DNA from: an uncultured Acidimicrobiaceae bacterium
GTDB taxonomy: Bacteria > Actinomycetota > Acidimicrobiia > Acidimicrobiales > RAAP-2
Assembly (NCBI GenBank): GCA_963755655.1
Contig: CAVWKX010000002.1
Span: forward strand, 44,837 to 108,836
DNA: 64,000 nt
Direction of reading: 5' to 3'
A program made the translations under genes and the position numbers. Below the pieces are notes generated by a model. That model was not told the DNA's origin. It saw nothing but the letters and a program-made list of their open reading frames with translations, and did not search any database. The first letter of the stretch is position 1. Every line of letters begins with the position of its first letter. This document shows, piece by piece, positions 18,119 to 56,579 of this stretch.

Positions 18119-19287
18119 TCACAGGGCAGTCCGTGCGTCCATCGGGCCCTTGGCACCGCTCGGGAGCGGTCGCACCATCGCATCGACGGAGAAGGAAGCC
18201 ACCAGCGCGCCGTCGAGGTCGTAGACCCGGTTCTCGGCGTGGGTCGTCCCGGCCCCGGCGAATGTCGAGTGGTGGTGATAGAGCAGCCAGTCGTCGACCT
18301 TGACCGGACCGTAGAACGACAAGCTGATGCTGTTGATCGCCATGGAGAGCGTGCGGTGCGCCTGATCCTGGCTGACGCCTTCGTGCGGCCGCAAGGCAGC
18401 GGCGATCGACATGTGGCCCGTGAACTGCGCCAGCAGGCCGGCGTGGAGGGCGGGGTCGTCCGGGACGTGGCGGAAGCGAACCCAGGCGTCGACGGTGGGC
18501 GGCCCGACCGGCCCGTCCTGTTCGCTCGAATAGCCGCCGTCGACCACTCTGATGTCGCGCCCGGTCACTGCCCATATCGTACGGGGGGCACTCGTAGGGT
18601 CCCGGGCACGTCCGGAGCATCGGCGGCGTGGCGGACGACGTCGTCTGAGGGCGTGTCGAGGAGCACCGTGCCCGCGGCGCAGAGACGCCCTCCTTGAAGC
18701 ACCTGGACCGAGAGGGCGGCGAACGTGCGACCCGGAGCTGAGCTCGACTGCAACTCGAACTGGAGCGGCTGACGGGCATCGGCCGACGCGCAACAACATT
18801 ATGGTGGCCGACATGACCCGGCGCCCCGGGGCATGCCGGCTGGCGGCGACGATGGCCTGCCCGAGCATCTGGCTGCCCTCGACGACGGGTCGTCGCTCGT
18901 CGCTCCGGGCGACACCGAAGAAGGTGAGCCCGTCGTCAGCGGGACGGACATCCATGACGTCGACGAGATGCGCGGCATCGCCCCAGGTCGGGAACCGCTT
19001 CACCGTTACGTCGTGGGCAGCATCGCCCTCGACCTCGTCGCTGACCTCAATCCGTACCCGGTCCTGATCGAAGGCCGCGTGGTCGGCCAGCTCCGGGAGC
19101 GGCTTCGGCCGGCAGGACGCAGCCGGACCAAGCCCTCCGAGACTCCTCGAAGTCGATGTCGGCGAAGGGGAAAGTAGAGGACGGGGAGCGCGCCGGGAGC
19201 CTCGGCACACAGGCACCGATCGGACTGCGCCACGATCCGTCCGTCCCACCAGGCGCTCGCTCGGTACGGGTAGCGATCGATCTTCAT
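18119..19287 (-). pseudogene. DUF427-like N-terminus fused to acyl-CoA thioesterase II (TesB-like), at least 3 frameshifts
   Basis: Pieces lie in three frames: MKIDRYPYRASAWWDGRIVAQSD...VLYFP, then FADIDFEES, then RFPTWGDAAHL...VVEGSQMLGQAIVAA. Segment GRTFAALSVQVLQGGRL appears in ORF 18565..18753. The C-terminal double-hotdog tail is in ORF 18119..19249. Confidence 0.7.
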
Positions 19288-19310
19288 GCCCGAGACGAGA
19301 AGGGCTCAGC

Positions 19311-20054
19311 TCATCCGGCGGGGCGGGGCGCGACCGTCACCGACGAGATGGCGACGCCGCCGTGGTGGAGGACCGTGTCGACGACGCTGATGAGATCCTC
19401 AATGCCGACGAACGAGCCGCTCATGTAGTTGCGTGCGAACCACAGCGGCATCACCTCGGCCGCCAGATCCTGATCCCAACCGTCGGCGAACCCGGGCACC
19501 GAGTCGCCTTCGCCACCCATGCACTCACCGACGATGACCCGGCTGAACCCGACCGTCGGGTGCTCGGCCCTCCAGGCCTCGACGAGCTTGTCGAGGGCCG
19601 CCTTGCTGACCGCGTAGGCGCCCAGGCCAGGCCACGGGGGAGTCACCGACGCGCTCACCGACGAGAGGTAGACGGCAGTGCCGGAGGAGTCGGTGAGATG
19701 AGGGAGTGCCGCCGCCGTCACCAGTGCGGCGCCGATCACGTTCGTGTCGAAGACATGCCGCCACGTGTCCGCGTCCATGTCGGCGAGACGGACGAGGGGG
19801 CCGACACCGGGCGCGTACACCAGGGCGTCGATGCCGCCGAGTCCGTCGGCGGCCTCGTTCAGCGCGGATCGGCAGGAATCGGTGTCGGTCACGTCACAGG
19901 TGATGGCCAACGTCCCCGGGCCTGCCTCCTTGGCGGCCCCTTCGAGTCGCTGCTGCCGGCGTGCGAGCAAGGCCGTCTGCGCACCACGCTGGGCGAGCCC
20001 GATACCGATGCACCGCCCGAGTCCACTCGATGCTCCTACGACGACCGTGCGCAC
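19311..20054 (-). CDS. short-chain dehydrogenase/reductase (SDR)
   Basis: GTG 20054 lies 5 nt after GAGGAGGGG. Motifs VGASSGLG (cofactor binding) and YAVSKAAL (YxxxK). Confidence 0.85.
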   Translation of the reverse strand: MRTVVVGASSGLGRCIGIGLAQRGAQTALLARRQQRLEGAAKEAGPGTLAITCDVTDTDSCRSALNEAADGLGGIDALVYAPGVGPLVRLADMDADTWRHVFDTNVIGAALVTAAALPHLTDSSGTAVYLSSVSASVTPPWPGLGAYAVSKAALDKLVEAWRAEHPTVGFSRVIVGECMGGEGDSVPGFADGWDQDLAAEVMPLWFARNYMSGSFVGIEDLISVVDTVLHHGGVAISSVTVAPRPAG

Positions 20055-20275
20055 TGCCCCTCCTCGGATTCGGCTGACGGCGATGTTAGACAACTTTGGC
20101 CGTGTTCGACTCAACGGGCGCCCGTCGACCCGGTGCCCGCGTCGCGGTCGACAGGGTGATCAAGCGGTCACCGCGGGCGGCCCGGGTGGGTCTTCGCTCG
20201 AAGGGTAGATTGACGTGAGTGTTAGATCCTGGCTGGACCGGTTCCTTCGCTCGCCATCCTCGCCGCCTGGTCGGT

Positions 20276-20332
20276 GAGAGCGACGCGACCCCGCCCCGGG
20301 GGGTCAAGGGGACGCGGGGCCGAGTCGCTCTC
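20276..20332. other. 57-nt extended imperfect hairpin in the SDR/rhamnosidase divergent intergenic region
   Basis: GAGAGCGAC (20276-84) pairs with GTCGCTCTC (20324-32). Nested inside, CCCCGC (20289-94) pairs with GCGGGG (20314-19). Confidence 0.4.
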
Positions 20333-20411
20333 TTGAGGTTGCCATCCCGTCGTTGCAACACCGTTTCGATTGGCGCGCTGCCCTGTTCGGAATGCCGTAA
20401 GAAGGCCGTAA

Positions 20412-23027
20412 GTGACCCGCGGTCCTGATCCTCGGAGGTCCCCACCCGGGCACCGACCGACCAGTCTCGCGGTCGAGCACCTCGGGGCGGCAGTCCTCGG
20501 ACTGGGCGATCGGCTGCCGCGGTTGTCGTGGCAACTGCCTCCTGGCGCGACCAAGCAGGAGGCGTACACCGTCGAGATCGACGGCCGCTCCTCCGACCGG
20601 GTGGAATCCGATGCCTGCGTTCTGCGTCCCCTGGCCCGGGGAATCCATTGACGTCCGCGGCAACGGATCGTCTGGCGGGTAAAGGTCTGGACCGACGGCA
20701 CCGAGAGCGACTGGTCCTCTTCGGCCTGGTTCGAGACCGGACTGCTCGACCGCGGCGGACTGGACCGCTCGTTTCATCGAGCCCGTGGAGACCGAGCGCT
20801 CGGCCCACCTGCTGCGCCACACGTTCGGGCTCGGCGTACCACCTGCGCAGGCCAGGCTCTACGCCACGGCGCACGGGATCTACGAGACGTTCCTCAACGG
20901 CCGGCGCGTCGGCGACGTGGAACTGGCGCCAGGTTTCACCAGTTACCCAACCACGCTCCACGTCCAGGCATACGACGTCGGAGCGCTGCTGGTGCGGGGC
21001 GACAACATCTGGGAGGTCGTCCTCTCGGACGGCTGGTGGCGCGGCCGAGTCGGCTTCTTCCAGTCCGTCGACGGCTTCGGCAGCACGCTCGCTTTTCTCG
21101 GGCAGCTCCACGCGGACGAAATCGTCGTCGCCACCGGCGGCGATTGGGAGTCCTCCAAGGGAGCGCTGCTGGCCGCCGACCTCATGGCAGGGCAGTTCGA
21201 GGACCACCGGACCCGGCCCGAGGCCTGGCAGCCCGTGACGGTCGCCGACCACGACCTGGGCTCCCTGGCCTACTCCCCGGCACCGCCGACGCGCCGGGTA
21301 CAGGAGCTCCGACCCGTTGCCGTCACCCGAGCCAGTCCCGATCGCCAGGTGGTCGACCTCGGGCAGAACATCAACGGCTGGCTGCGCCTGAGCGACGTGG
21401 GGCAGCGCGACACGGAGCTGACGATCGTGCTACGGCGAGGCCCTCGACCCGTCGGGCGACGTCACGCAAGACCACCTTTCGCCCGACCTCTTCGGAAATG
21501 GCATGCAGGTCGGCATGGTCGATCGAGTCGTCGCGGCCGGCAGCCCTGGGGAGGTATTCGAACCGCGGCAGACGACACACGGCTTCCAGTACGCCGCGCA
21601 TCGAGGGCCACTCCGGTCGACTCACGCCCGACGACGTCACCGGCGTGGTCGTCCACACGGACCTGCAGCGCACGGGCTGGTTCCGCTGCAGCGACGATCG
21701 GCTCAACCGGCTGCACGACATCACGGAGTGGTCGTTCCGCGACAACGCCTGCGAGATCCCAACCGACTGTCCCCAGCGCGAGCGGGCCGGCTGGACCGGA
21801 GACTGGCAGTTGTTCGTGCCCGACCGGGGCCTTCCTCTACGACGTCGCGGGCTTCTCCGTCAAATGGCTGCGGGACGTGGCGGCGGAACAGCTCGACGAT
21901 GGGCGGATCACCAACTACGCGCCGGACCCGCTACGGCAACGGGTGGGGAGTACGGTGCGATGGCCGCAGATGCAGGGGTCGTCCGGCTGGGGTGACGCCA
22001 TCGTGATGGTCCCGTGGGAGCTCTGGCGTGCCTACGGCGACCACGACGTGCTGGCCGAATTCTGGCCATCCATGGTCGTCGTGGGTGGATTTCGCGGCGC
22101 GGGCGGCGCGCACGCACCGTCACCCGAGCCGCGAGGCGGCTCGCCCGGAGCCGGCGCCGCACGAAGCGTTCATCTGGGATGGGACCTACCACTGGGGCGA
22201 GTGGCTCGAGCCGGGTGCGCAGCCCCACGACCACGTGCAAGCTGGACCAGGGCTCCGTCGCCACTGCGTTCCTGCACCACTCCGCCGCATTGGGCGCCCG
22301 CATCGGCCGCCTGCTCGGCCATGACGCTGAGGCAAGGCGCTTCGACGACCTGGCGGCGAACGTCTTGGAAGCGTGGCGGACGGAGTTCATCGGACCGGGC
22401 GGCGCCCTCACTCCGGACACCCAGGCCAACCACGTCCGCGCCCTGGCCTTCGGCCTCGTTCCCGACGAGTTGCGCGCGCGGACAGCGGAGCGGCTGGTGG
22501 AGCTGATCCGCGCCGCCGGCACCCATCTCGGCACGGGGTTCCTCGCCACGCCCTACCTCTTGCCGGTGCTGGCGGACACCGATCACCTCGACGTCGCGTA
22601 CGAGTTGCTGTTGCAGGACACGCCGCCTTCGTGGCTGGCCATGGTCGAACGTGGGGCGACGACGGTTTGGGAGTCGTGGGAAGGCATCGACGAGGACGGA
22701 CGCCCGCACGACTCGCTGAACCACTACAGCAAGGGGGCAGTGATCTCCTTCCTGCACAATTACACCGCCGGCATCGCTGTCCTCGACGGCCAACCCGCCT
22801 ACCGCCGCTTTCGTGTCGAGCCCCGTCCCGGGGGCGGGATCACCTGGGCCGAGGCGGTGCACGACTCGCCCTACGGGCGGATCGAGTCTTCCTGGCACGG
22901 CGATGGGTCGAGGTTTCACCTCACGGTGACCGCACCGCCAGGGACGGTGGCCGAGGTCGTGTTGCCCGACGGCTCCCTCCGTGAGCAGGGACCGGGCACC
23001 GTGACCTATGAATCCCGGCTCACTTGA
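20412..23027 (+). pseudogene. alpha-L-rhamnosidase (GH78), at least 9 frame changes
   Basis: Family-typical blocks are spread over all three + frames: PRLSWQLP, VKVWTDGTESDWSSSAWFETGLL, LYATAHGIYETFLNGRRVGD, IPTDCPQRERAGWTGDW, GWGDAIVMVPWELW, HLGTGFLATPYLLPVL, TTVWESWEG. Confidence 0.8.
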
Positions 23028-23076
23028 GGGTGCCGCGGGGTCTCGGCCTTCTGGCGCCGACTCCGGATTCCTCGGA

Positions 23077-23090
23077 TGCGAGCGCTAACA
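23077..23090. promoter_or_regulatory. LacI-type CG-centred operator candidate TGCGAGCGCTAACA
   Basis: Lies 42 nt upstream of ATG 23132. Resembles the sites at 30513 and 47994. Confidence 0.3.
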
Positions 23091-23131
23091 TGGCGGATGC
23101 GCGCACCTGAGGTGTGCCGAAAGGGGGCAGC

Positions 23132-24269
23132 ATGTCGAAGACGCCATCATTTCGGTGGACGGGCACGTCAGGGCCTCACGGAGCGACTACCGGAACTACG
23201 TCGAGAAGCGATTCCTCGACGCCTTCGATGACTGGGCCAGGGCGGAAGAGGCAGCGGGCGCGCCCGAGAGCGGCAATCTGAGCGCGGGACTGGACCCGAC
23301 ATCGCAGTGGGATTCGGAACTCCGCCTGAAGGACATGGAGAGCCAGGGCGTTGTTGCCGAGGTGCTCTTCCCGAACGGACTGCCCTTCCAGGCGAGGCCG
23401 GCGGACGACGTGGGCTCGTTCTCGGACCCCGAGATAGATCGGCAGGCCCGTCTCGCTTACAACCGCTGGCTGGCCGACTTCTGCGCGCAGACGCCGGGTC
23501 GCCGTGCCGGGCAGGCGTTGATTTCGTTCGACGACGTCGATCTGGCCGTGAGGGACATTCACTGGGCGAAGGAGCAGGGCCTGGGCGGCGTCATGATGCC
23601 CGCCCTGCTTCCCGGTGGAACCTTCTTCTTCGATCCCGCGCTCGATCCGGTTTGGTCCGCGTGCGTGGACGTCGACCTCCCGATCAGCCAACACGGTGGG
23701 ACGGGTGCGCCGACCTACGGCCCTCCGGGCTTCGGCGCCATCATGACATTGGCCCTCGAGCACTCCTTCTACTCGGGCCGCTCGCTCTGGCAGATGATCC
23801 TCGGTGGGGTGTTCGAGCGCTTCCCGGATCTCCGGGTGGCGTTCGTCGAGACCGAGGCCGATTGGATCGCCCCGGTCATCCGGAAATTGGACCGCCGCCT
23901 CAGCTGGGGCGACGACTGGACCGGGTGGGCCGCCACCATGCAGCGCATGCGGCAGTTCGCCGGTCGGCCCGCGACTACTGGGCGGCCAATTGCTTCGCCG
24001 GGATCTCGCCCTTCACCGACGAGCAGGTTCCCCTGCAGGAACTTGCCCGGCCGAGCGCCGAGTACGACGCATTCGCCATCGGTTGTGACAACGCCATGTT
24101 CGGCGTGGACTACCCGCACTTCGAGTCGGTGTTCCCCGAGACCAAGGTCGCAGGTGGACGCGCTGGTGTCGCATCCGTCCATCACGGCCGAGGTGTCCCG
24201 GAAAATCATGTGCGGGAATGCGGCGCGCTGTACGGCTTCGACGTGGATGCCCTGCGACCTGCATGCTGA
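23132..24269 (+). pseudogene. amidohydrolase-2 family protein, about 4 frameshifts
   Basis: ATG 23132 follows AAGGGGG, then the frame shifts within the first codons to AIISVDGHV. Later shifts occur near 23960, 24150 and 24225. The VDYPHFES motif is present. Confidence 0.75.
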
Positions 24270-24310
24270 GCGAGTCGGCTTCGACATCGAGTCCTCCGGG
24301 CGGTCCTCGT

Positions 24311-25569
24311 CTACCCGCTGCCCGTAGCCGTCAGTCCAGCGCGTTGCGCCGCAGCCACCTGACCGAGCCAGCGGGCCGACGGTTTGACCGTCCGGGCGAA
24401 CGTCTCATGGTCGAATGCGATGAGCCCGAACGTCTTGGCATAGCCGGCATTCCATTCGAAGTTGTCCAGCAGCGTCCAGTGGACGTAGCCGCGCACGTCG
24501 ACTCCGTCCTCCACGCACTCCGCCAGACCCTTGAGAGCGGCGCGGGTGTAGGCGAGCCTCGCCGCATCGTCGTCGGTCGCCATGCCGTTCTCGGTCACGA
24601 GGACGGGCACGCCGGCGTGTTCCGCGGCGAGGCGGACCGTGTGGCCGAGTGCTTCGGGGTAGACCTCCCATCCCGGTCTGCATGGTGGCCACCCCTTCGG
24701 AGACCGGGAGCTGGCCTTCCGGCCCGATGCGGGTCCGGCTGTAGGTCTGCACCCCGACGAAGTCGTCGTCGGCCGAGACGGCGAGCCAGTCGGTCTGACC
24801 CAGCCGGCGCGCCTCGCTGCCAGCGCTCCTCTCCGCCCTCCGCCGGCTGCAGGTCGACGAGCGCCAGGGTCCATCCCGTCTTGACGGTCCCGGTCGTCGA
24901 CTTGATCGCCTCGACCGCCCGTCGGTGTGCGTCGGCCATCTGCTCGAGGCCGGCCGCCACGATCCCCATCCGATAGCGGGACGGGTCGTACCCCCCGACG
25001 CCACCGTGTCTCTCCTCCACGGGCTCCGCTGCGGGCGGGCGGTCTCCCGTCCCCATGGCGAGGACCCCGGTGCTCCGCATCATCGCCATCAGGTTGGGCT
25101 CGTTCAGCGTGCAGACCCAGGACAAGAGGTCACCGACGTGTTGGGTCACCCGAGCGGCGTAGGCGGCGAACCGCTCCGGCGCGTCCGCCGCGCTCCAACC
25201 TCCTCTTCCTGCCATCCAGCGAGGAACAGTGAAGTGGTTGTAAGTCACCACGGGCGTGACGCCCTGGTTCAGGCAGCTCTCGATCATCCGCTTGTAATGG
25301 TCGAGTGCGGCGCACGAGTAGAAGCCCGGCTCCGGTTCGATGCGTGACCACTCCAGGGAGAACCGGTACGCGTTGAGCCCGAGCTCGGCGAGCATCGCGA
25401 TGTCCTCGGGGTAGCGGTGGTAATGGTCGCAGGCGTCACCGGACGGTTCGTTGAACGTGGAGTCCGTGGCCCACTCCATGGGCCACAGGTCGGCGTTCAC
25501 GTTTCCTCCTTCGACCTGGTGTCCGGCCGTCGCCGCGCCCCAGAGAAAGTCGTCCGGAAAAGATGTCAT
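24311..25569 (-). pseudogene. GH1 beta-glucosidase, at least 2 frameshifts (near 24820 and 24675)
   Basis: MTSFPDDFLWGAATAGHQVEGG, TLNEPN (acid/base) and VTENG (nucleophile) lie in different frames (ORFs 24595..25635, 24405..25004, 24311..24874). Confidence 0.85.
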
Positions 25570-25629
25570 TGGGGTCCTTCCTGCGCGGCGGAGATTCGAA
25601 GAGAGCAGTGTGACACCCCAGAACACCCT

Positions 25630-25645
25630 ATGCAAAGCTTTGCAT
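25630..25645. promoter_or_regulatory. perfect 16-bp palindrome ATGCAAAGCTTTGCAT (LacI-family operator type)
   Basis: Lies 61 nt upstream of the beta-glucosidase start. The 14-bp core is identical to 56429-56442. Confidence 0.55.
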
Positions 25646-25797: not shown

Positions 25798-26307
25798 ATG
25801 GCCGAACCACGCCGGCTGAGTTTCGATCCGATCGCGGAAGCAGAGCGTCAATGGGGTCTGCATGGTTGGTCGGACGAAGCGCCGGGGATGGCTGTCGTGA
25901 CCTCCATCATGCGGTTGCAGCAGATCTTCCTGGCGCGGGCAGATGCCGTTCTTCGCCCGCTGGGCCTCACCTTCGCCCGCTACGAGGTGCTCATGCTGTT
26001 GTCGTTCTCGCGTCGGGGCGTCTTGCCCTTGGGCAAGATCGGTGAGCGCCTGCAGGTCAATCCCGCCAGCGTGACCAACGCGGTCGACCGCCTGGAGGCC
26101 GACGGCATGGTCACCCGCCGGTCAAATCCCGAGGACGGACGGGGGCGGCTGGCCTCCCTGACAGATGCCGGACGGCGGAGCGCCGCGGTGGCCACGGATG
26201 CCATGAACGAGCAGGTCTTCTCGGACATCGGGCTGGCTTCGCCGACGGTGCCGCAGCTCTTCGAGCTCCTGGCAGAGCTCCGTGGTGCCGCCGGGGACTT
26301 CGAATAG
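25798..26307 (+). CDS. MarR family transcriptional regulator
   Basis: 169 aa. Winged-helix region is LGKIGERLQVNPASVTNAVDRLEADGMVTR. TAGCGT lies 6 nt upstream of the ATG, suggesting a leaderless transcript. Confidence 0.85.
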   Translation: MAEPRRLSFDPIAEAERQWGLHGWSDEAPGMAVVTSIMRLQQIFLARADAVLRPLGLTFARYEVLMLLSFSRRGVLPLGKIGERLQVNPASVTNAVDRLEADGMVTRRSNPEDGRGRLASLTDAGRRSAAVATDAMNEQVFSDIGLASPTVPQLFELLAELRGAAGDFE

Positions 26308-30552: not shown

Positions 30553-33022
30553 ATGCGCCGCACCCCCTTCAACGACGGCTGGACGGTCGGAACCAAGGCG
30601 AACTCCTTTGCGGAGATGATCGCGGGAGCGGGCTCGGCGCCGCTGCCGGTGACCCTGCCCCACGACGCCATGATCGCCACCGAGAGGTCGCCCGCCGGGC
30701 ACGCGGCGACGGCGTATTTCCCGGCGGGCAGCTGGGAGTACAAGAAGTCGTTCGAGCTCTCGCCGAGCGACGCCGGGAGCGCCGTCTTCCTGGAGTTCGA
30801 CGGCGTCTACCGCGATGCGCTGGTGCGCGTGAACGACGCCATGGTCGCCCACCGGCCGGGCGGCTATTCGGACTTCACCGTCCAGGTCGACCATCTGTTG
30901 CGGTTCGGTGAGCCCAACGAGGTGAAGGTCGAGGCACGCGCCCACGACGACAGCCGGTGGTACTCGGGAGCCGGCATCTACCGCAGCGTCTGGTTGCTGC
31001 AGGCGGGCCGGGTCCATCTGGTGCCCGGCGGCCTGCAGCTGGTCACGCCGGAGATCGATGACGACGTGGCAATGGTGGCCGTCAGTGCCGAGGTGCGGAA
31101 CCAATCAGTGGGGACGTCGAACGCCGTCCTCCGCGTGGAGATCCTCGATGCGGACGGGAGGTGCGTCGCCACGGCGGAGGCGCCGGTCACGACGGTGCCG
31201 GGCGACGTCCTCACGGCCCGGCAACGGCTGTGTGTCCCTGCACCACACCGGTGGGGTCCCGACGATCCCTACCTCTACACGTGCCGGGCCAGCTTGCTGG
31301 AGGGCGACCGGGTGGTGGACGAGGAGTCGACGACGTTCGGGATCCGGACGTTGACGGCCGACCCCACGCGGGGATTGCGCATCAACGGGGAGCCCGTCCT
31401 GCTCCGCGGCGCCTGCGTCCACCACGACAACGGCCTGCTCGGTGCGGCCACCATCGACCGCGCCGAGGAACGACGGGTCGAGCTCCTCAAGGAGGCCGGG
31501 TTCAACGCGATCAGGAGTGCGCACAACCCCTTGAGCAAGCCGATGCTCGCGGCCTGTGATCGTCTCGGGATGCTCGTCATGGACGAGACCTTCGACATGT
31601 GGACGCAGCCGAAGAGCGAGCACGACTACGCCCTGCGCTTCCCCGACTGGTGGGAGGCGGACGTGGAAGCCATGGTCCGCAAGGACTTCAACCACCCGAG
31701 CGTGATCCTGTACAGCATCGGCAACGAGATCCCGGAGGCGGGGACGCCGATGGGTGCACGCGTCGGCCGTGCGCTGGCGGAGAAGATCCGGTCGCTCGAC
31801 ACCACGCGGTTCGTCACCGAAGGCATCAGCGGGCTCCTCGTCGGCGGTGCCGAGCTCTTCGCCCAGCTGGCCGAGAGCCGCGACAGTGCGGCGCGACCCG
31901 AGGAGAACCCGGACGAGGAGACGGGCGTGAACACCGCCATGACGCAGATCGCCGATCGGCTCAACGACCTGATGACGGCGCCGGTCGTGGCCAAGAACTC
32001 CGCCCAGACCGCCTCGTATCTCGACGTGGTCGGGTACAACTACATGGAGACGCGGTTCGCCATGGACGGCGAGCTCTATCCGAACCGCGTGATCGTCGGC
32101 AGCGAGACGCATCCCGCGGCGATCGACACCGGCTGGGCGGCGGTCCGCCGGCATGCCCACGTGATCGGGGACTTCACGTGGACCGGCTGGGACTACCTGG
32201 GCGAGGCCGGGATCGGCCGCACCGTCTACGGCCAGACCGGGTTCGACGCCCGGCATCCAGTCGTTCCTGGGCGAGTACCCGTGGCGGACCGCCTGGTGTG
32301 GCGACATCGACATCACGGGTCACCGGCGCCCCCAGTCGTACTACCGCGAGATCGTCTTCGGGCTGCGGGCGGACCCGTACCTCGCCGTGCAGCGACCCGA
32401 GCACCACGGCGAGGTCGGCGCCGGCACGCCGTGGTCCTGGAGCGACGTGGTGTCGAGCTGGAGCTGGGCCGGGCACGAGGGCGCGCCGGTGACGGTGGAG
32501 GTCTACGCCGATGCCGACGAGGTCGAGCTGCTCGTGAACGGCCGCTCGCGTGGGCCGGCAGCCGACCGGCGCGCGCGCACCGCTACCGGTCGGCGTTCGA
32601 GACAACGTACGAACCGGGCCTGCTGGAGGCCGTCGCCTGGCGCGACGGAACCGAACGCGGTCGCATGGCCATCCGCTCGGCCAAGGAGCGAGGTGCTGCT
32701 CGACGCCGACGTCGATCGCCCGGTCATCGCGGCCGATCCCGAAGACCTGGCCTTCGTGACCCTCGGTCTGGTCGACGGCGACGGCACGCTCCACGTGGTG
32801 CGCGACCGACGCGTCGACGTGCAGGTCGACGGGCCCGGCGTGCTGCAGGCCCTGGGCAGCGCGAACCCCGCCACCGAGGAAGGCTTCGCGGGGACGAGCT
32901 GCACCACCTTCGACGGGCGCGCCCTGGCCATCGTCCGGCCGACCGGCGCGGGGCGGATCACGCTCCGCGCCACGGCGGAAGGGTGCGAGCCGCAGCAGGT
33001 CGAGATCGATGCCCGCTCCTGA
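30553..33022 (+). pseudogene. GH2 glycoside hydrolase (beta-galactosidase-like), about 4 frameshifts in the last 800 nt
   Basis: Intact to about 32250 (NHPSVILYSIGNEIPE, WTGWDYLGEAGIG). Blocks YPWRTAWCGDIDITGHRRPQSYY, HRYRSAFETTYEPGLLEAVAW and DLAFVTLGLVDGDG then lie in alternating frames. Confidence 0.8.
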
Positions 33023-33040
33023 GCTGCGAGCGGGTCGGCC

Positions 33041-34032
33041 GTGACCTGGGAGCTGCGCTGGCATCCGTTCCGCGGCCAGTGGGTCCTCTTCACGTCCCAC
33101 CGGGACGCCCGGCCCTGGATCGGCGAGATCGCGGCCCCGGAGGAACCACCGGTCCCCGACGACAACGCGCTGGCGCCCCTCGGCACGCGGCTGCACGGGA
33201 CCAATCCCGACTACCGGGGGGTCTACGTGTTCACGAACGACCTCCCGGTGTTCTCGCCGGACGCGCCGGTGCCCGAGTCCGAGCCGAGCGGACGACGTCT
33301 ACCGGACACGGCGCGCCGCTGGGCACGGCCGAGGTCGTCTGCTACCACCACGACCCCACCCGCTCGATGGCCGACCTCACCGACGACGAGATGGCGGCCA
33401 TCGTCACCACCTGGCGCGATCGCACGGAGGCGTTGCAGGGGCAGGAGGGCGTGGCGCACGTCCTCATCTTCGAGAACCGGGGCGCCATGGTCGGCACCTC
33501 GAATCCGCACCCGCACTGCCAGATCTACGCCGGCTCGATGGTGTACGCCACCATGGCCCGCGAGGCGGAGGTGGCGCGCGAGCACCACCGGCGGACGGGG
33601 CGCTCGCTGCTGGCCGAGGTGATCGAGCGGGAGGCGGACGGGCCCCGCGTCGTCAGCGAGGGTGACCATTTCTTCGCCTGCGTCCCGTGGTTCGCGCAGT
33701 ACGCCTACGAGGTGCACATCCTGCCGCGGCGGCCCGTGACGTCACTGGTGGACCTCGACGAGGACGAATGCCGTTCGCTCGGGCTCGTCCTGCGCGACGT
33801 GGTGCGGCGCTACGACGCGTTGTGGGGCTTTCGCCTGCCCTACGTCCTGGCGGTGCATCAGGCCCCCGTCGGCGACCATCCGCACTACCCGTTCCATCTG
33901 GAGCTGCACCCGCCGCTCCGGGCTCCGGGCCTGCGCAAGTACCTGGCCGGTCCCGAGGTGGGCGGCGGCTCCATGACCAACGAGTCGGACCCCGACCAGA
34001 AGGCGGAGGAGCTCCGTGCCGCCCTCGCCTGA
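33041..34032 (+). pseudogene. galT: galactose-1-phosphate uridylyltransferase, 1-2 frameshifts near 33290-33320
   Basis: GTG 33041 gives TWELRWHPFRGQWV. The HPHCQIYAG (HxHxQ) block sits in the frame of the 30388..34032 run-on ORF. Confidence 0.8.
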
Positions 34033-44298: not shown

Positions 44299-45312
44299 TC
44301 AGCCGGGAGGCTCTGCCGTGCTCCCACGGACGACAAGTGCGGCGGGGACGACGACGTGTCGCTCCACCGGATCATTGTCGGCGAGTGCGAGCAGCAGCTC
44401 GACGCTACGGCGCCCAACTTCGCCGAAGTCCTGACGGACCGTCGTCAGCGGCGGCAGGAAATAGCCCGATTCGGGCGTGTCGTCGAATCCGACCACGCTC
44501 ACGTCCTCGGGGACCCGTCGACCCGCGTCATGGAGGCCTCGGATCACCCCGAGCGCCGTCTGGTCGTTGGCGGCGAAGATGGCGGTCACCGCCGGATCGG
44601 CGGCGAGCCGCCTTCCGGCGTCGTAGCCCTTGCTGGGCCCCCAGTCTCCCGCCACGGACGTTCCGCGTTCCGCTGGATACGACCGGAGTGCTTCCGACCA
44701 GCCTCGCAGGCGCGCCGTGGCGTCGATCCAGCTCTGTGGCCCGGCGACGTGATGCACGGTGCGGTGGCCGAGGTCGAGGAGGTGTCGCGTGGCGAGGCGG
44801 GCCCCCTCGAGCTGGTCGATCGTGACGGTCGGCGTGCCGATGGCCGGATCGCCTCCCACCACGACGAGGGGCATGTCCCCATCGAGCCGGGCCGCGGCCT
44901 CGATGACGCGTTTGACCGGTGCGACCACGATGACTCCCTGCGCATGGGACGCCCGCAAGCGGTCGAGCGTGGACGCCATGTCATTGCCGCTCCTGCTGAG
45001 CGTGACGAAGCTCAGCAGATGACCGGCCTCTCGCGCCGCCGCCTCAATGCCGAAGAGCATGTGGGACGGTCCGAACTGCTCGGTCTCGACGGCCATCACC
45101 CCCAATGTCCGGGATCGGCCGCCGGCCAGTACCCGCGCCGCCGTGTTCGCCTGGTAGTCGAGGGCGATCACCGCCTCCTCGACGCGGAGCCGGGTCTCTT
45201 CGGCGACGCCGGCGAACCCGTTCAGCACGCGGGAAACCGTCATGACGGAGACGCCGGCTTGGGCGGCGACGTCGGCCATGACGGCACGGCGCGGTGGCAT
45301 GTCGGCCGTCAT
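44299..45312 (-). CDS. LacI family transcriptional regulator (downstream of xylAB)
   Basis: 337 aa. HTH is VMADVAAQAGVSVMTVSRVLNG, followed by a periplasmic-binding-fold sugar domain. Intact. Confidence 0.9.
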   Translation of the reverse strand: MTADMPPRRAVMADVAAQAGVSVMTVSRVLNGFAGVAEETRLRVEEAVIALDYQANTAARVLAGGRSRTLGVMAVETEQFGPSHMLFGIEAAAREAGHLLSFVTLSRSGNDMASTLDRLRASHAQGVIVVAPVKRVIEAAARLDGDMPLVVVGGDPAIGTPTVTIDQLEGARLATRHLLDLGHRTVHHVAGPQSWIDATARLRGWSEALRSYPAERGTSVAGDWGPSKGYDAGRRLAADPAVTAIFAANDQTALGVIRGLHDAGRRVPEDVSVVGFDDTPESGYFLPPLTTVRQDFGEVGRRSVELLLALADNDPVERHVVVPAALVVRGSTAEPPG

Positions 45313-48072: not shown

Positions 48073-49044
48073 ATGATCCGCTGGGGCGTCATCGGACCGG
48101 GCAGCATCGCCACGGGATTCGCGGAGGCGATGCAGTGGGCCGAGGGAGGCACCATCACGGCCGTGGCCTCACGTTCGGCCGAGCGGGCCGAGGCCTTCGG
48201 CGACCGGTTCGACATACCGACCCGCTACGGCGACTACGACGCACTCGCCGCCGATCCCGATGTCGACGTCGTCTACGTCGCCACGCCGCACTCCCGCCAC
48301 GAGGTCGACACCATCGCCCTCCTGCGGGCGGGCAAGCACGTCCTGTGCGAGAAGCCGTTCGCGCTCAACGCCCGCCAGGCGGCACGGATGGCCGAGGAGG
48401 CCCGGAGCCGGGGGCTCTTCCTGATGGAAGCCATCTGGAGCCGGTTCCTTCCGGCCTACCGCTCCCTGGTCGACGTCATCGGGGCGGGTCGCATCGGCGA
48501 GCCGCTGCTCGTCGAGGCCGATTTCGGGTTCCGGCGACCGGTGGATCCCGATCACCGGCACTTCGCTCGCGAGCTCGGCGGCGGCGCGCTCCTCGACCTC
48601 GGGATCTACCCCATCCAGCTCTGCACGCTCGTCCTGGGCCCGATCGAGCGGGTCGTGTCAGATGGCGTGGTGGGCGAGACCGGCGTCGACGAGGTGGTCA
48701 CCGCGTTGCTGCACCACCCCGAAGGAAGGCTGGGCGTGGTCAAGGCGGCCATACGGGTCAACCTGACGTGTACGGCTCGCATCGCGGGGACCGAAGGAGT
48801 CATCGATCTTCCGGCGATGATGCACTGCCCGAACTCGCTCACCGTCTCGAGCGCGGCCGGCGTCGACCACATCGACGCGTCCTACGAGGGGAACGGGCTG
48901 CGCTTCGAGATCGACGAGGTGCACCGATGCCTGGCCGAGGGGCGGACCGAGAGCGACGTCGTCTCTCTGGACGAGTCCATCGCGCTGGCCACGACGCTGG
49001 ACACCATCCGGGCCGACCTCGGCGTGGTGTACCCCGGAGAATGA
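48073..49044 (+). CDS. Gfo/Idh/MocA family oxidoreductase
   Basis: MIRWGVIGPGSIA Rossmann N-terminus and the CEKPF motif. 323 aa, intact. Confidence 0.85.
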   Translation: MIRWGVIGPGSIATGFAEAMQWAEGGTITAVASRSAERAEAFGDRFDIPTRYGDYDALAADPDVDVVYVATPHSRHEVDTIALLRAGKHVLCEKPFALNARQAARMAEEARSRGLFLMEAIWSRFLPAYRSLVDVIGAGRIGEPLLVEADFGFRRPVDPDHRHFARELGGGALLDLGIYPIQLCTLVLGPIERVVSDGVVGETGVDEVVTALLHHPEGRLGVVKAAIRVNLTCTARIAGTEGVIDLPAMMHCPNSLTVSSAAGVDHIDASYEGNGLRFEIDEVHRCLAEGRTESDVVSLDESIALATTLDTIRADLGVVYPGE

Positions 49045-49061
49045 GCGAGCGGGACGGTGCC

Positions 49062-50285
49062 CTACCGGAGCCGGTAGAGCACCTCGCCGGCGTCGGGCAC
49101 CACCAGGGCGTCGGGGTCGGCCAGCCAGGTCGTCGAGGTCGACGGCGTCGGGCGCGAGGTAGCCGAGGTTCGCGTGTCGGACCAGGGCCTCGGGGATGCC
49201 GGTGGCGAGCGTCACGTGCACGCGCTGGTGCTCACCCGTCGCCCGGTCGTACGTCCCGGCTCCGAAGAGGTGGGTGGAGTGCGCCAGCTCGCCCAGCGGC
49301 ACGTCGCGGTAGCGGTCCCAATGAGCCAGGAAGAAGTCGCGGCAGTGGTAGCCGATGTCCGTCAGGCGAGGGTGCATGGCCGCGATCTCGGTGATGTGCG
49401 GCGCGTACAGGACGACCTCGCCCCGTCGGCGACGACGGGCTCGACCTTGTAGAAGCCCTTCGCCCCGGTCCACAGGTCCGGGTAGCGCTCGGGGACCAAC
49501 GAAAGGACGCGTGCGACCGGCCTGTCGAGATACTCGACATGCGTCTCGGCCGCGACGTCCGCCGCGTCGGCCCACGCCTGCTCGGGCTCCCCGAAGGAGA
49601 GCGACTCCAGCCCGCCGCTGACGTGCTCCACGACGACGCACAGTGCGTGGCGCTCGCCGGGCACCAGGCCTGCCGCGGCATCCACCAGGGCCCGCACCGG
49701 CGTGATGCCCCGGGTCCCGATGATTTCGCTGCTGGTGATCAGGGCACCGAGCCAATGCGTGACGTCGATCATCTCCTGGCCCGACAGGCCGGGAAACAGG
49801 TACTTGTTGCCGCCGGAGAACCCGATGACCTCGTGGGGGAGCACCGGGCCCACAAGCAGCGTCACGTCACTCTCGACGACCAGCCGGTTGATGCGCACCT
49901 CGATGGAGTCATGGATCCGTCCCCCGGAGAGCTCCCTGACCAGCTCGCCGGGCAGCGTGCCCACGTGCACGAAGGTGCCGTCGTCCCACCAGGCGTGGTT
50001 GCGGGTGGGAATCGATGCCGGCCCGACGAGCGCAGCGATGGCAGCGTCGGACATGGGCGCGTGCGTGCCGAGCGCGACGACCGCAACGCAGGAGCTCGCC
50101 CGGCCGCCGACCCCTTCTTCGACAGCCTGGAGGAGGAGCGGCAGCGGGCATTGGCGGGTGCCATCGGGAATGACCACGCACAGCGACCGGCCGGCCAGGT
50201 CCAATCCGGCGACCTGCGCCCGCACGAAGGAGCGGACCACCTCGGGGTCGAGGGTCTGACCGGGCCCCCCCACGGCGACCGTCAC
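49062..50285 (-). pseudogene. LarA-like (DUF2088, nickel-pincer-dependent 2-hydroxyacid racemase/epimerase family) protein, 2 frameshifts
   Basis: GTG 50285 follows GGAGG and overlaps the upstream stop (GTGA). HEVIGFSGGNKYLFPG block is present. Shifts occur near 49430 and 49125. Confidence 0.65.
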
Positions 50286-51689
50286 CGTTCCGCCTCCAGG
50301 AGCGCGGGTCCCTCGGTGGTCAGGCGTCGCAGCGCTGACGCCACCTCGGCGGTGAATGCGGCGTCGGCGAGCGATCCGAGCGCGAGGTGGCTGAGCTCCT
50401 GCAGGTCGTCGCGGCGCGAGGCGGCACGGAGCGCCTCGGCGATCGGGTCCTCCAGTTGCTGGCAGGCGCACGCCGCGCACCGCGACGCCTGCGGTCGCCG
50501 CGATCCAGATGGCGGCCACGACGGCGAACCTCGTGGTGGGGAGCGTCCGTTCTCTGCGGCCGGCGACGACCGGAAGCAGGCGCTGGGGCAGTTTGCTCGA
50601 GCCGTCGGCCCCGACCTGCGCGCACCTGTGGCCGAGGGCCGGGTTGGCGAACCGTCGCAGAGCCTCGTCGGCGAATGCGGCCGGCTCCAACGCGGCAGGG
50701 AACTCGGCCGACCTCGAGCGTGTCGTCGACGAGGCCCCGCACGAAGCGCGCGATGGTCGAGTCGGCCACGGCGTCGGCGATGGTGTCGTGGCCGAGCCAG
50801 CAGGCCGCCGTACGCCGCGGCCGAATGCGGGCCGTTGAGGAGCCAGAGCTTGCGCCGCTCGTAGGGGGTCACGTCGTCGACGAGCCGGACGCCGACGTCG
50901 CCCAGTGGAGCCAATCCGGCGACCGACTCGCATGATCCAGGAGCGGTGTCGCTCCGTGCTGACTGCAGCCAGGTCGAGCAAGCCCAAGCCTGTCGGCGAT
51001 GTCCTCCACGTCGCGCTCGGTCGGCGCGGGCACCATCCGGTCGACCACCGAGCTGGGGAAGAGGACCTTGTCGGCGATCCACGGTGCGAGGCTGGGGGTC
51101 GATGCGCTCGGCGGCCTCGAGGACGCGTGCGCGCAGGACGGTTGCCGTTGTCGAGGAGGTTGTCGAGCGGAGCGAAGACCGGAGGGTCCAATCCGTCCCG
51201 CCGGCACTGGGCCAGGGCCAAGGCGATGAGCGCGGGCATGGTCGCCGTGCGCCTTCGAGGGTCTCGGCGTGTCGAGGGAGGGCTCGTAGCCCTTCTCCGT
51301 GATGGTCAGCGTCACCAGCCTGGTGGTCGGTGCGGTCATTGCGTCGAGCGCTGCGGCCGCCCCGGTCTCCATGGAGGCCAACGCGCCGATCACCTCGAGC
51401 GACGGTGTCCTCGCCGGGCTCCCGCACGGCGACGGTGAAGAGCCCGTCCTGTGGCTCGAGTTGGTCCTGCGCCCGCCGGACTCCTGATGGAGACGCCCCT
51501 GATCAGCGCGGGCCGGCCCCGGCGCAGCAGCGTCGTCGGCGTAGACGGCGAGGTGTGCCCGGGCGAACGCTCCGAAACCGAGGTGGGTGATGCACGGTGC
51601 GCGAGAACGGTCGTAGTCCGGGAGCGCGTCCGCCTGGGCCTCGGTGCAGCGTGCTGCTGCGCAACCGTTGCCGTTGCTGCGGCTGTCAT
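50282..51689 (-). pseudogene. mannitol dehydrogenase family oxidoreductase (fructuronate/tagaturonate reductase-like), many frameshifts
   Basis: ITHLGFGAFARAH, VTLTITEKGY, VDRMVP and LWLLNGPHSAAAYGG blocks are scattered over three frames between 50282 and 51689. Confidence 0.65.
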
Positions 51690-51733
51690 CCGTCCCCTCG
51701 GCGGCGACAGGACGCCGTGTAGGGTCGGGCGTC

Positions 51734-54483
<2,750 letters not shown>

Positions 54484-54503
54484 GCTGTCTCCCCGTGCGT
54501 CGG

Positions 54504-55022
54504 CTAGCCGTGGTCCGGGCGAGGGGTCAGCAGTCCCAGCACCTCGTCCGCGATGGATTCCGGGGCGCGGCCGTCGGTGTCGATGATCGCGGTGGCCACC
54601 TGCCGATAGAGCTCGGAACGCATCTCGGCCATGGCGGCGAAGGTCTCGGCCGGTCGGTCTTCGAGAAGCGGGCGGTGATCGCCCGGGCGGACCCGTCCGG
54701 CCAACGTCGACGGGCTGGTTCGGAGCCAGACGACGAGGCTGTCGGCGAGGGCGGCGCGGACGAGGGGATCGAGCACCACCCCTCCCGGCGCAGCCAGCAC
54801 CGTCGGTGTGTCCTCCCGCAGGGTCTCGAGCACCACCTCTGATTCGAGGTACCGGTAAGCCGCCTCGCCACCCTCCTCCCAGAGCTCGCGGACGGTCTTG
54901 TTCATGCGCACGGTGATGACGGTGTCCACGTCCACCAGCGCCCGTCCGGTGCGCTGCGCCACGAGCGCGCCCACGGTTGACTTTCCCGATCCCATCAGAC
55001 CCACCAGCACCACGGTCTTCAC
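54504..55022 (-). CDS. shikimate-kinase-like P-loop kinase
   Basis: GLMGSGKSTVG Walker A plus VDVDTVI...ELWEEGGEAAYRYLESEV, as in AroK. Sits between uxaC and uidA. Confidence 0.75.
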   Translation of the reverse strand: MKTVVLVGLMGSGKSTVGALVAQRTGRALVDVDTVITVRMNKTVRELWEEGGEAAYRYLESEVVLETLREDTPTVLAAPGGVVLDPLVRAALADSLVVWLRTSPSTLAGRVRPGDHRPLLEDRPAETFAAMAEMRSELYRQVATAIIDTDGRAPESIADEVLGLLTPRPDHG

Positions 55023-55024
55023 CC

Positions 55025-56425
55025 TCAGACCCTAAAGGCCTGGCGCGCCAGGTTGTAGGCGAGGTCTTCGGCGGTCTCGACCGCCTCCTCTTCCTGCAGG
55101 CGGTGCTCGGCCACCAGTCCCGCCAGGTATCCGGCTTGCAGCCTTCGGGCCACGTCGTGACGGGCGGGGATGCTCAAAAGGGATCGGGCATCGTCGTTGA
55201 ACCCGACCGTGTTGGCGAACCCTGCCGTTTCGACGACCGATCGATAAAACCGCCCGATGCCTTCCGGGCTGTCGAAGAACCACCACGGTGGCCCGAGACG
55301 CAGCGCCGGGTAGTGGCCGGCGAGGGGCGCCAGCTCGCGCCCGTAGGTGGATTCGTCGAGCGTGTACACGACAACGGTCAGTCCGGGCTCGTTGCCGAAC
55401 CGGTCGAGCAGCGGCTTGAGGCCACCCACGTAGTCGGCCCTCGTGGGGATGTCGGCGCCCTGGTCCGGGCCGAAACGGGCCGCCACGGCGGGATTGTGAT
55501 CCCGCCACGCACCGGCATGGATCTGCAGCACGAGCCCGTCGTCGAGGCTCATGGCTGCCATCTCGACCAACATCTGGCCCCGGAACAGTTCGGAGTCACC
55601 CGGCTGTCCCTGTCCGGCCGTGATGCGCGCGAACAGATCTGCTGCGCCCCGAGACGACAGGTCGGCCGTGGCCGGTGTGGGGTGCCCGTGGTCCGAGGCG
55701 GTCGCCCCCGCCGCGACGAAGGCGGCGCGCCGGCTCCGCAATGCGTCGAGATAGCCGGCCCAGCTGGACGTGTCCGACCCGGTGAGCTGGCCCAGCGCGG
55801 CGACGCGGGAGTGGAAGCCGGGCCGGTCGGGGTCGACCACGTCGTCGGGGCGGAAGGTGGGCACGACCCGCCCTGACCAACCGGACTGGCGGAGCTGCGC
55901 GTGCGACGCGAGCGGGTCGAGGGCGCCATCGGTCGTGGCCAGGAACTCGATCCCGAAGCGCTCGAAGAGCGCACGCGGCCGGAAGTCCGCTTGCGTCAGT
56001 CGGGCCGAGATCTCGTCGTACAGGACGTCGGCGTTCTTCTCGTCGAGCCGGTCCTGCACGTCGAAGACCTCTTGGAGCGTGTGATCGAGCCAGAGCTTCG
56101 ACGGAGTGTTCCGAAAGAGAGCGATGTGCGTCGCGAGCTCGCGCCAAATCCGCCGGCCGTCGGTGACCGCCGGCGTGCCGTCGAGTGGTTGCACCCCCAG
56201 CGTCTCGAGGGGTACGCCCTGGCTGTAGAGCATGCGCAGGACGTAGTGATCCTTGGTCACCAGCTCGGTCGCTGGGCTGTCGAGGGCCACGTCACCGGCG
56301 AACGCCGCCGGGTCGCAGTGGCCATGGGGGCTCACGATGGGAAGCGCCTTCGTCCCTTCGTACAGTGCGCGGGCCATCCGGCGGACGCCGGGGTCGGCCG
56401 GAAGCAGGCGGTCCGGGTGGAGCAT
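55025..56425 (-). CDS. uxaC: glucuronate (uronate) isomerase
   Basis: 466 aa from ATG 56425, intact. IVSPHGHCDP (HxH) and FNDDARSLLSIP blocks. The track ORF extension to 57046 is run-in. Confidence 0.9.
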   Translation of the reverse strand: MLHPDRLLPADPGVRRMARALYEGTKALPIVSPHGHCDPAAFAGDVALDSPATELVTKDHYVLRMLYSQGVPLETLGVQPLDGTPAVTDGRRIWRELATHIALFRNTPSKLWLDHTLQEVFDVQDRLDEKNADVLYDEISARLTQADFRPRALFERFGIEFLATTDGALDPLASHAQLRQSGWSGRVVPTFRPDDVVDPDRPGFHSRVAALGQLTGSDTSSWAGYLDALRSRRAAFVAAGATASDHGHPTPATADLSSRGAADLFARITAGQGQPGDSELFRGQMLVEMAAMSLDDGLVLQIHAGAWRDHNPAVAARFGPDQGADIPTRADYVGGLKPLLDRFGNEPGLTVVVYTLDESTYGRELAPLAGHYPALRLGPPWWFFDSPEGIGRFYRSVVETAGFANTVGFNDDARSLLSIPARHDVARRLQAGYLAGLVAEHRLQEEEAVETAEDLAYNLARQAFRV

Positions 56426-56427
56426 CG

Positions 56428-56443
56428 ATGCAAAGCTTTGCAG
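56428..56443. promoter_or_regulatory. palindrome ATGCAAAGCTTTGCAG (LacI-family operator type)
   Basis: Starts 3 nt upstream of the uxaC start codon. The core TGCAAAGCTTTGCA is identical to 25631-25644. Confidence 0.55.
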
Positions 56444-56495
56444 GGCCGGCTGCCTCGTGCCACGTCGTCCCGTTGTGCCCGCAGGCATTGTCCTG

Positions 56496-56513
56496 TAATA
56501 TTGACGTCGAAGT
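56496..56513. promoter_or_regulatory. TAATAT hexamer followed by a TTGACGTCGAAGT motif
   Basis: Lies upstream of amidohydrolase 56580. Shares 12 of 14 positions with 26324-26337. Confidence 0.4.
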
Positions 56514-56579
56514 TGAAAACCGTCCGCGGGCCGCGCCTCGAACGTCGGCGCTGCGGTCCACGTCATCTCGGAGGTGGCC

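Follow-up and report, generated by a model that had tools for sequence, protein, structure and literature searches.

The window, by which we mean the whole 64,000-nucleotide stretch that was analysed (C2:44837-108836), belongs to a draft assembly of an uncultured Acidimicrobiaceae bacterium that comprises 35 contigs and 3.60 Mb at 68.5% G+C, with a completeness rated at 62.5%. We found that a palindromic 14-mer, TGCAAAGCTTTGCA, is present in the window in two exact copies, which lie upstream of a GH1 beta-glucosidase-family gene (site 1) and upstream of the glucuronate isomerase gene uxaC (site 2), as the first-pass annotation of this DNA had proposed for an identical palindrome before two sugar genes (Table 1). 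The full palindrome at site 1 is the 16-bp ATGCAAAGCTTTGCAT at 25630-45, and the extended sequence at site 2 is ATGCAAAGCTTTGCAG at 56428-56443. The distances given in the annotation are also correct: the GH1 ATG at 25569 is separated from the 14-mer by 61 nt, and the uxaC ATG at 56425 by 3 nt. Both sites are intergenic and upstream of their predicted target genes, and the LacI2 gene, 3.7 kb from site 2 and adjoining the uxaC-kinase-uidA operon, is clustered with these targets, as is typical of LacI-family regulators.

Table 1. Genes, predicted operators and conserved boxes of the window, in order of position.
Feature	Position	Strand	Remarks
GH1 beta-glucosidase-family gene	24332..25569	-	start 25569; two frame changes; predicted target of operator 1
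Conserved box GTG(T/C)CACACTG	25607..25616	-	between GH1 and operator 1, 14-15 nt from the latter
Operator 1 (predicted), TGCAAAGCTTTGCA	25631..25644	none	GH1-MarR divergent region; 33.2 bits
MarR gene	25798-26307	+	beside site 1; followed by an acyl-CoA mutase gene
LacI1, second LacI-family gene	44299-45312		intact; beside FGGY-kinase and xylose-isomerase-fold genes
LarA-like gene, putative hexonate epimerase (NCBIfam label)	49032-50285	-	frame-shifted
Fructuronate-reductase-like (uxuB-like) gene	about 50290-51689	-	divergent from LacI2; frame-shifted
LacI2, LacI-family repressor gene	51734..52705	+	converges on uidA; predicted binder of both operators
uidA, GH2 beta-glucuronidase	52680..54483	-	one frame change; third gene of operon
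Small kinase, shikimate-kinase fold (SKI), 172 aa	54504..55022	-	PF01202; second gene of operon
uxaC, glucuronate isomerase	55025..56425	-	intact, 466 aa; PF02614; first gene of operon
Operator 2 (predicted), TGCAAAGCTTTGCA	56429..56442	none	3 nt upstream of uxaC ATG; 30.0 bits
Conserved TGGCAC box	56457..56462	-	exactly 14 nt upstream of operator 2
Divergent amidohydrolase gene	56574-57782		far side of site 2 from uxaC

The gene assignments on both sides follow from profile matches. UxaC passes the NCBIfam glucuronate isomerase equivalog NF002794 with 504 bits against a cut-off of 387, and the intact uidA orthologue of the relative G010 reaches 877 bits on the equivalog NF007538. The intact 411-aa GH1 orthologue in G010 matches TIGR03356 (GH1 beta-glucosidase) with 282 bits, which is under the model cut-off of 478. 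The small SKI-fold protein, whose position between uxaC and uidA is conserved across loci, is possibly a sugar-acid kinase. The cluster of uxaC, SKI-fold kinase, uidA, fructuronate-reductase-like and LarA-like genes spans 49032-56425 in the window and is also present at L017:10000-17378; no operator was found before the fructuronate-reductase-like and LarA-like genes, though they belong to the same conserved cluster. The LarA-like protein scores 143 bits with the NCBIfam model "putative hexonate epimerase", below its cut-off. A UxuA-family mannonate dehydratase (PF03786) was found neither in the source genome nor in four relatives of 91-96% completeness. The lack of PF03786, together with the LarA-like/kinase cluster, suggests a non-classical glucuronate route, in which fructuronate would be converted to mannonate, then to an epimerised hexonate, and then phosphorylated, replacing UxuA, KdgK, and KdgA, although an enolase-type mannonate dehydratase may yet be encoded.

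Both copies of the palindrome are real and far beyond chance. At up to two mismatches, the window holds 2 matches to the 14-mer against the 0.02 expected from dinucleotide-preserving shuffles, and none of 100 such shuffles of the window gave 2 matches. The genome-wide scan at up to two mismatches suggested by the first-pass annotation shows that the 14-mer is not common: in the whole 3,595,400-bp draft assembly, the copies at 0-1 mismatch are the two window sites and no others, and only three extra matches appear, all of them at 2 mismatches. We built a weight matrix of the operator from 69 sites in relatives; with this matrix, the next best position of the genome after the two sites (Table 1) scores 14.5 bits, and the scan of this 62%-complete genome revealed no convincing weaker operator sites. 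An exact-string literature search for the 14-mer found no paper.

The palindrome is an even inverted repeat, TGCAAA GC TTTGCA, with the TGnAAn/nTTnCA half-sites that are characteristic of LacI-family operators. In the 69-site matrix, 10 of the 12 half-site columns are conserved at 136-138 of 138, and the outermost T/A column at 131 of 138. The central base pairs are GC at both window sites instead of the usual CG. The earlier description of a LacI/GalR operator architecture with a centre other than CG is borne out, with canonical half-sites in the window and CG-centred sites, CGCAAACGTTTGCA, in distant orthologous loci. Of 1251 even-palindromic LacI-family motifs, Ravcheev et al. (2014, PMC4052901) count 1173 with a central CG, 49 with some other pair, and 29 that are degenerate; because 49 of the 1251 have other pairs, a non-CG centre is uncommon but known, and a CG centre, like autoregulation, is usual in the family without being obligatory. 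Most of the genus has a GC centre; GG/CC occurs in some members and in Microthrixaceae-labelled bins, and CG in more distant loci; in addition, mixed centres coexist, with CG, GG, and GC within single loci.

The palindrome is well conserved among the relatives of the source genome, which we take to be Microflora Danica long-read metagenome bins of uncultured Acidimicrobiaceae (isolate names MFD...). In a first draw, the exact 14-mer was present in 13 of 24 genomes of the genus, and the 16 genomes drawn from other families of the order had no copy; in a larger draw, 53 of 101 genus genomes carry the motif at no more than one mismatch. The genomes with the motif have 1-4 copies, always before genes of the sugar cluster, and in many genus genomes a single contig carries two of them, separated by 15-30 kb. 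In the fetched loci, the motif directly precedes uxaC orthologues that are only 64-81% identical at the protein level, and it also precedes GH1 orthologues of 65-94% identity, the site upstream of GH1 being present in G010, G011, G014, G003, G012, and G005. A uxaC-proximal site with both half-sites exact was found in 51 distinct upstream sequences, and the distance from the site to the uxaC start codon is 2-6 nt in the 23 sequences displayed. In G012 and G005, GH1 and uidA are divergent neighbours with one common site. Some genomes also have the motif before a GH3 gene, which is divergent from a GH78 rhamnosidase gene, or before an ABC-transporter operon. The comparative footprinting that the first-pass annotation had recommended thus finds the 14-mer kept at orthologous places in dozens of species-level genomes of the genus.

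In several genomes (G083, at L055:14172 and 14238, G095, G104, G116, and others), the uxaC divergent region holds a pair of operators 50-115 bp apart, one belonging to uxaC and the other to the divergent GH3 or transporter gene; in G083, the centre is GG/CC at all three sites. Near site 2, a second conserved element, TGTAATATTGACGTCGAAGTTGAAAA, is located at 56486-56513 of the window, about 45-70 nt from operator 2 and upstream of the amidohydrolase gene (56574). This element recurs before the divergent amidohydrolase in several genus genomes (W, L041, L043, L044, and L053); it is distinct from the LacI operator and probably serves as the site of a different regulator.

We then compared the distribution of the motif with that of LacI2. 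In every fetched motif-bearing uxaC-uidA locus whose contig reaches far enough, a LacI2 orthologue is present, and it is always situated between uidA and the uxuB-like gene. In the 101-genome genus draw, the motif is present in 43 of the 44 genomes with LacI2 and in 10 of the 57 without it, in a count of LacI2 that leaves out one paralogue of 36% identity. In the one LacI2 genome that lacks the motif, LacI2 itself is matched only in part. As for the 10 motif-bearing genomes without LacI2, five show only one-mismatch matches, and in at least one of the other five, G020, a contig end cuts the locus. This co-occurrence is partly trivial, since LacI2, the uxaC operon, and the motif are neighbours and their joint occurrence in the genus partly reflects the presence of the gene cluster.

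The evidence from outside the genus is sharper. We scanned 79 LacI2-anchored loci, with one genome per species, and found a TGCAAA-NN-TTTGCA site, with no more than one mismatch in the half-sites, in the flanks of 55 of the 61 loci whose LacI2 relatives have at least 52% identity. A further locus, L087, has two-mismatch versions only; five loci at or above 52% are without a site, two of them cut by contig ends and two with LacI2 in another gene context. The site is missing from the flanks of 18 Nocardiopsis paralogues (about 38% identity) and of one Actinomycetes MAG. In the Ilumatobacteraceae-labelled loci, the order is uxuB-uxaC-uidA (leftward), CGCAAACGTTTGCA, LacI2 (rightward), TGCAAAGGTTTGCA, and GH1 (rightward), so that the sites flank LacI2 directly and again tie GH1 to the glucuronide genes. 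The motif stands before both uxaC-kinase-uidA and GH1 in many genus genomes and in MAGs labelled Ilumatobacteraceae or Microthrixaceae. A contig labelled "uncultured Bifidobacterium sp." (L089, CAYVUO010000097.1) encodes a LacI2 relative of 54% identity together with uidA and uxaC, and has CG/CC-centred sites in the Acidimicrobiales arrangement; this contig may be mis-binned.

From these associations, we consider it very likely that TGCAAA-GC-TTTGCA is the operator of the local LacI2 repressor encoded at 51734-52705. The motif shared across many genomes favours the earlier proposal that a single repressor would co-control the glucoside and the glucuronide/hexuronate genes. The first-pass annotation had named the frameshifted LacI gene as the nearest candidate; by co-occurrence it is indeed the best candidate, but its frameshift is probably an artefact of the assembly and not the mark of a dead gene.

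The features of the LacI2 protein are those of its family. The intact 322-aa orthologue at L025:5364-6329 matches PF00356 (61 bits), as well as PF13377 and PF00532, and the window copy is 94% identical to it over residues 1-200. LacI2 possesses a LacI-type helix-turn-helix at the N-terminus and an effector domain that resembles type-1 periplasmic binding proteins, with the recognition helix VHAATVSRTIN and the hinge PNRAARGL. The hinge Leu, the residue that in this family enters the central base step of the operator, is present, in the form PNRAARGLITGRT, in the window copy and in most orthologues; one LacI2 sub-clade has AAQVM or AARVM at the hinge position, yet the same GC-centred sites. No helix or hinge residue tracks the operator centre, and GC-centred sites accompany both ARGL and AQVM hinges. 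The closest solved relative of LacI2 is CcpA bound to cre DNA (PDB 1rzr, E = 3e-42).

Autoregulation, which is predicted for 72% of LacI-family regulators, is not seen in this genus. The gap between the start of the uxuB-like gene (51689, minus strand) and the GTG of LacI2 (51734) occupies 51690-51736 and measures about 45-47 nt; in the window and nine relatives, this 47-nt gap contains no operator within 5 mismatches, and the only 5-mismatch matches lie more than 260 nt upstream of LacI2, in a single locus. The Ilumatobacteraceae-type loci have a CG-centred site 75-105 nt upstream of LacI2. In this genus, LacI2 is probably constitutive. The gap before LacI2 contains a TAGGGT box, and a conserved GTGTAGGGTCG (or GTGTAACGTCG) box is found about 8 nt before the LacI2 start codon in all 10 of the 10 loci compared, an arrangement consistent with a leaderless LacI2 transcript.

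The frame changes in the window need to be explained. Compared with the intact G011 orthologue, the window copy of LacI2 has three single-base (+1) insertions, at 52331, 52536, and 52680, and frame changes are also present in GH1, uidA, the GH78 rhamnosidase gene, a GH2/galT pair, the uxuB-like gene, and the LarA-like gene. The operators could be real but orphaned here, recent relics of a decaying regulon in which LacI2, uidA, GH1, the rhamnosidase, and the uxuB-like and LarA-like genes are genuinely pseudogenised. The distribution of the breaks speaks for such decay, as it is far from a uniform error rate: relative to G010, 9 of 23 window genes are broken by at least 19 breaks, mostly in glycosidase or sugar genes, while thirteen other genes of about 4,600 aa in total have none; moreover, the LacI2 insertions are not homopolymer slips. 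Against decay, the LacI2 insertions are private to the source MAG, and G071, G108, and G067, which are of low completeness, have other private +1 insertions in LacI2, while the LacI2 orthologues are intact in 35 of 44 genomes of the genus sample. The genomes with broken LacI2 have a marker completeness of about 70% compared with about 85%, which would follow if genes at large were broken by indel errors, and the genomes concerned are long-read metagenome bins. In addition, uxaC, the kinase gene, and both operators are intact in the source genome. Given these private insertions, here and in other bins, and the intact state of most orthologues in the sample, we read the LacI2 frameshifts as probable consensus errors of the assembly, and genuine decay of the regulon in this genome appears rather unlikely.

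The breaks are clustered at 18122-25569, 30553-34029, and 49032-54483 of the window, and an amidohydrolase gene at 23143-24297 is intact between the rhamnosidase gene, with 6 breaks, and GH1, with 2 breaks. The clustering might stem from accessory regions being covered less deeply, or from real decay.

The second LacI-family protein of the window, LacI1, could bind the palindrome in place of LacI2. LacI1 is intact and encoded 7-11 kb from site 2, and 37 of the 42 genomes with LacI1 have the motif; however, five genomes have LacI1 but no motif, four of which (G053, G059, G098, and G110) are also without LacI2, and six genomes (G005, G011, G012, G043, G064, and G069) have LacI2 and the motif but no LacI1. 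Within the 20-kb loci around motif sites, LacI1 was not seen except in the window; in L074, a 33%-identical LacI adjoins the GH1 site. In other families, it is LacI2, not LacI1, that the sites flank directly. LacI1 fits the co-occurrence more poorly than LacI2 and was set aside as the binder, a role that we judge very improbable for it.

Least credible of all is a reading of the palindrome as the site of a global or unlinked regulator from outside the LacI family (the neighbouring MarR, for example), as a non-regulatory repeat, as an RNA hairpin, or as a chance duplicate: MarR adjoins site 1 in G000, G010, G011, and G014 but is absent at the GH1 sites of G012 and G005 and at all uxaC sites, the few copies per genome always stand before sugar-cluster genes, and the chance expectation is that given above. 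MarR was rejected, as it shows no link to the motif outside these four genomes. The RNA-element reading was likewise rejected: Rfam has no match anywhere in the window, the palindrome folds no better than shuffles (z-scores of -0.45 and +0.32), and no terminator-like feature is present.

With LacI2 as the predicted binder, the sequences around the two sites suggest how repression might operate. The GH1-side box and its spacing are kept in 6 of 7 GH1 sites, and the opposite flank is not conserved. The GH1 layout consists of the operator (TTGCAT), 17 nt, TGc-CACACT, a leader with AGGAAGGA, and the ATG; the box may represent a -10 element (TGn-CACACT), with the -35 element (TTGCAT) inside the operator. 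On the opposite strand, the GH1-side box reads TGACAC/TGGCAC-N14-operator and points away from GH1, a direction that leads to uidA in G012 and G005 and to MarR in the window, and a back-to-back promoter pair is possible at the GH1 site. At uxaC, the layout consists of TGGCAC, 14 nt, TGC-AAAGCT-TTGCA, 2-6 nt, and the start codon. In the 51 uxaC-proximal sequences, the TGGCA(C) box has a top-base frequency of 0.86-0.94 compared with about 0.42 in the flank further upstream. TGGCAC may therefore act as the uxaC -35 element, followed by a 17-nt spacer and an extended -10-like TGC-AAAGCT in the operator, with a leaderless or near-leaderless start. A scan for E. coli-type (sigma-70) promoters returned nothing at either site, and the proposed boxes are recognised by conservation alone. 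As a counterpoint to the operator reading, site 2, at 3 nt from the start codon, is outside the usual -140 to -30 range.

Since the sites overlap conserved promoter-like boxes, promoter occlusion is the likely mechanism. A LacI2 dimer would bind both operator copies. At uxaC, the operator would cover the likely -10 region and the point where transcription of uxaC-kinase-uidA, with little or no leader, would begin; at GH1, it would cover the likely -35 element (TTGCAT, 17 nt upstream of TGc-CACACT). The bound dimer would block RNA polymerase in the manner of classical repression, and the repressor would be released by a sugar-acid effector, for which glucuronate, a glucuronide, or an intermediate further down the pathway are plausible candidates. 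Binding by LacI2, the sense of the regulation, the promoter elements, and the type of effector are all inferred from sequence comparisons.

The different centres, together with these promoter overlaps, allow a further, tentative reading. Within the LacI2 orthogroup, the centre might have moved from CpG (Ilumatobacteraceae-type) through GG/CC to a fixed GpC, with the helix and hinge essentially unchanged and with the operator doubling as a core promoter element in this genus, as an extended -10 (TGC-AAASST) for leaderless uxaC and as the -35 (TTGCAT) for GH1; we think it doubtful as it stands. If the GpC preference is real and selected, not just inherited, the orthogroup would offer a natural series on how the LacI hinge deals with a stiff purine-pyrimidine central step, and, if the reading is true, it would also suit the study of operator-promoter co-evolution. 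Two points are of mild interest in themselves, namely that the centre drifts among members of a single orthogroup and that the operator overlaps the proposed core promoter elements.

The result is a concrete predicted regulon for an uncultured, abundant soil lineage (Acidimicrobiaceae, Microflora Danica survey). The regulon would join beta-glucuronidase and glucuronate catabolism with GH1 and, in relatives, with GH3 and GH78 glycosidases and an ABC transporter. The presence of GH1, GH3, GH78, and glucuronide genes in one regulon points to mixed plant or microbial glycosides, not to a single sugar.

Among known systems, CcpA of Bacillus megaterium (PDB 1rzr and 1zvv) resembles LacI2 both in the recognition helix, SMATVSRVVN in CcpA and HAATVSRTIN in LacI2, and in the hinge, NAVARGL and NRAARGL, respectively. 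Furthermore, cre and the LacI2 operator have an identical 14-bp architecture, TG-N-AA-N-xx-N-TT-N-CA, but the centre of cre is CG instead of the GC found here. CcpA is a global regulator that needs HPr-Ser-P, whereas LacI2 appears to be local: a genome has 2-4 sites, and nothing points to a corepressor protein. In the case of PurR, the box of Gammaproteobacteria has the consensus aCGCAAACGTTTGCGt; its half-site GCAAA/TTTGC and its spacing match those of the LacI2 operator, and the CG-centred CGCAAACGTTTGCA of distant LacI2 orthologues is almost a PurR box. However, the PurR protein is only distantly related to LacI2 (E about 1e-23), and it responds to purines and governs nucleotide biosynthesis. 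A functional analogue of LacI2 is UidR/GusR of E. coli and gut Firmicutes, a TetR-family repressor that acts on the beta-glucuronidase operon and responds to glucuronides; it differs from LacI2 in protein family and in operator type.

The nearest counterparts by function are the LacI-family hexuronate regulators ExuR, UxuR, UxaR, and KdgR, which are predicted in RegPrecise, where six non-orthologous groups serve the pathway (PMC4052901). They are likewise local LacI-family repressors of glucuronate/galacturonate catabolic genes, recognised by the same comparative logic, and we liken them to LacI2 by function without assuming orthology. Unlike these regulators, LacI2 is predicted to add GH1, GH3, and GH78 glycosidases and an ABC transporter to its regulon, and its operator has a non-CG centre. 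The Acidimicrobiales are probably outside the coverage of the set of Ravcheev et al. (2014), and the LacI2 operator would be a clean further example of the uncommon LacI-family operators whose centre is not CG; sister families still show the canonical form. By the features tested, LacI2 and its palindrome appear to be an ordinary local LacI-family sugar repressor and its operator, with a slightly unusual centre.
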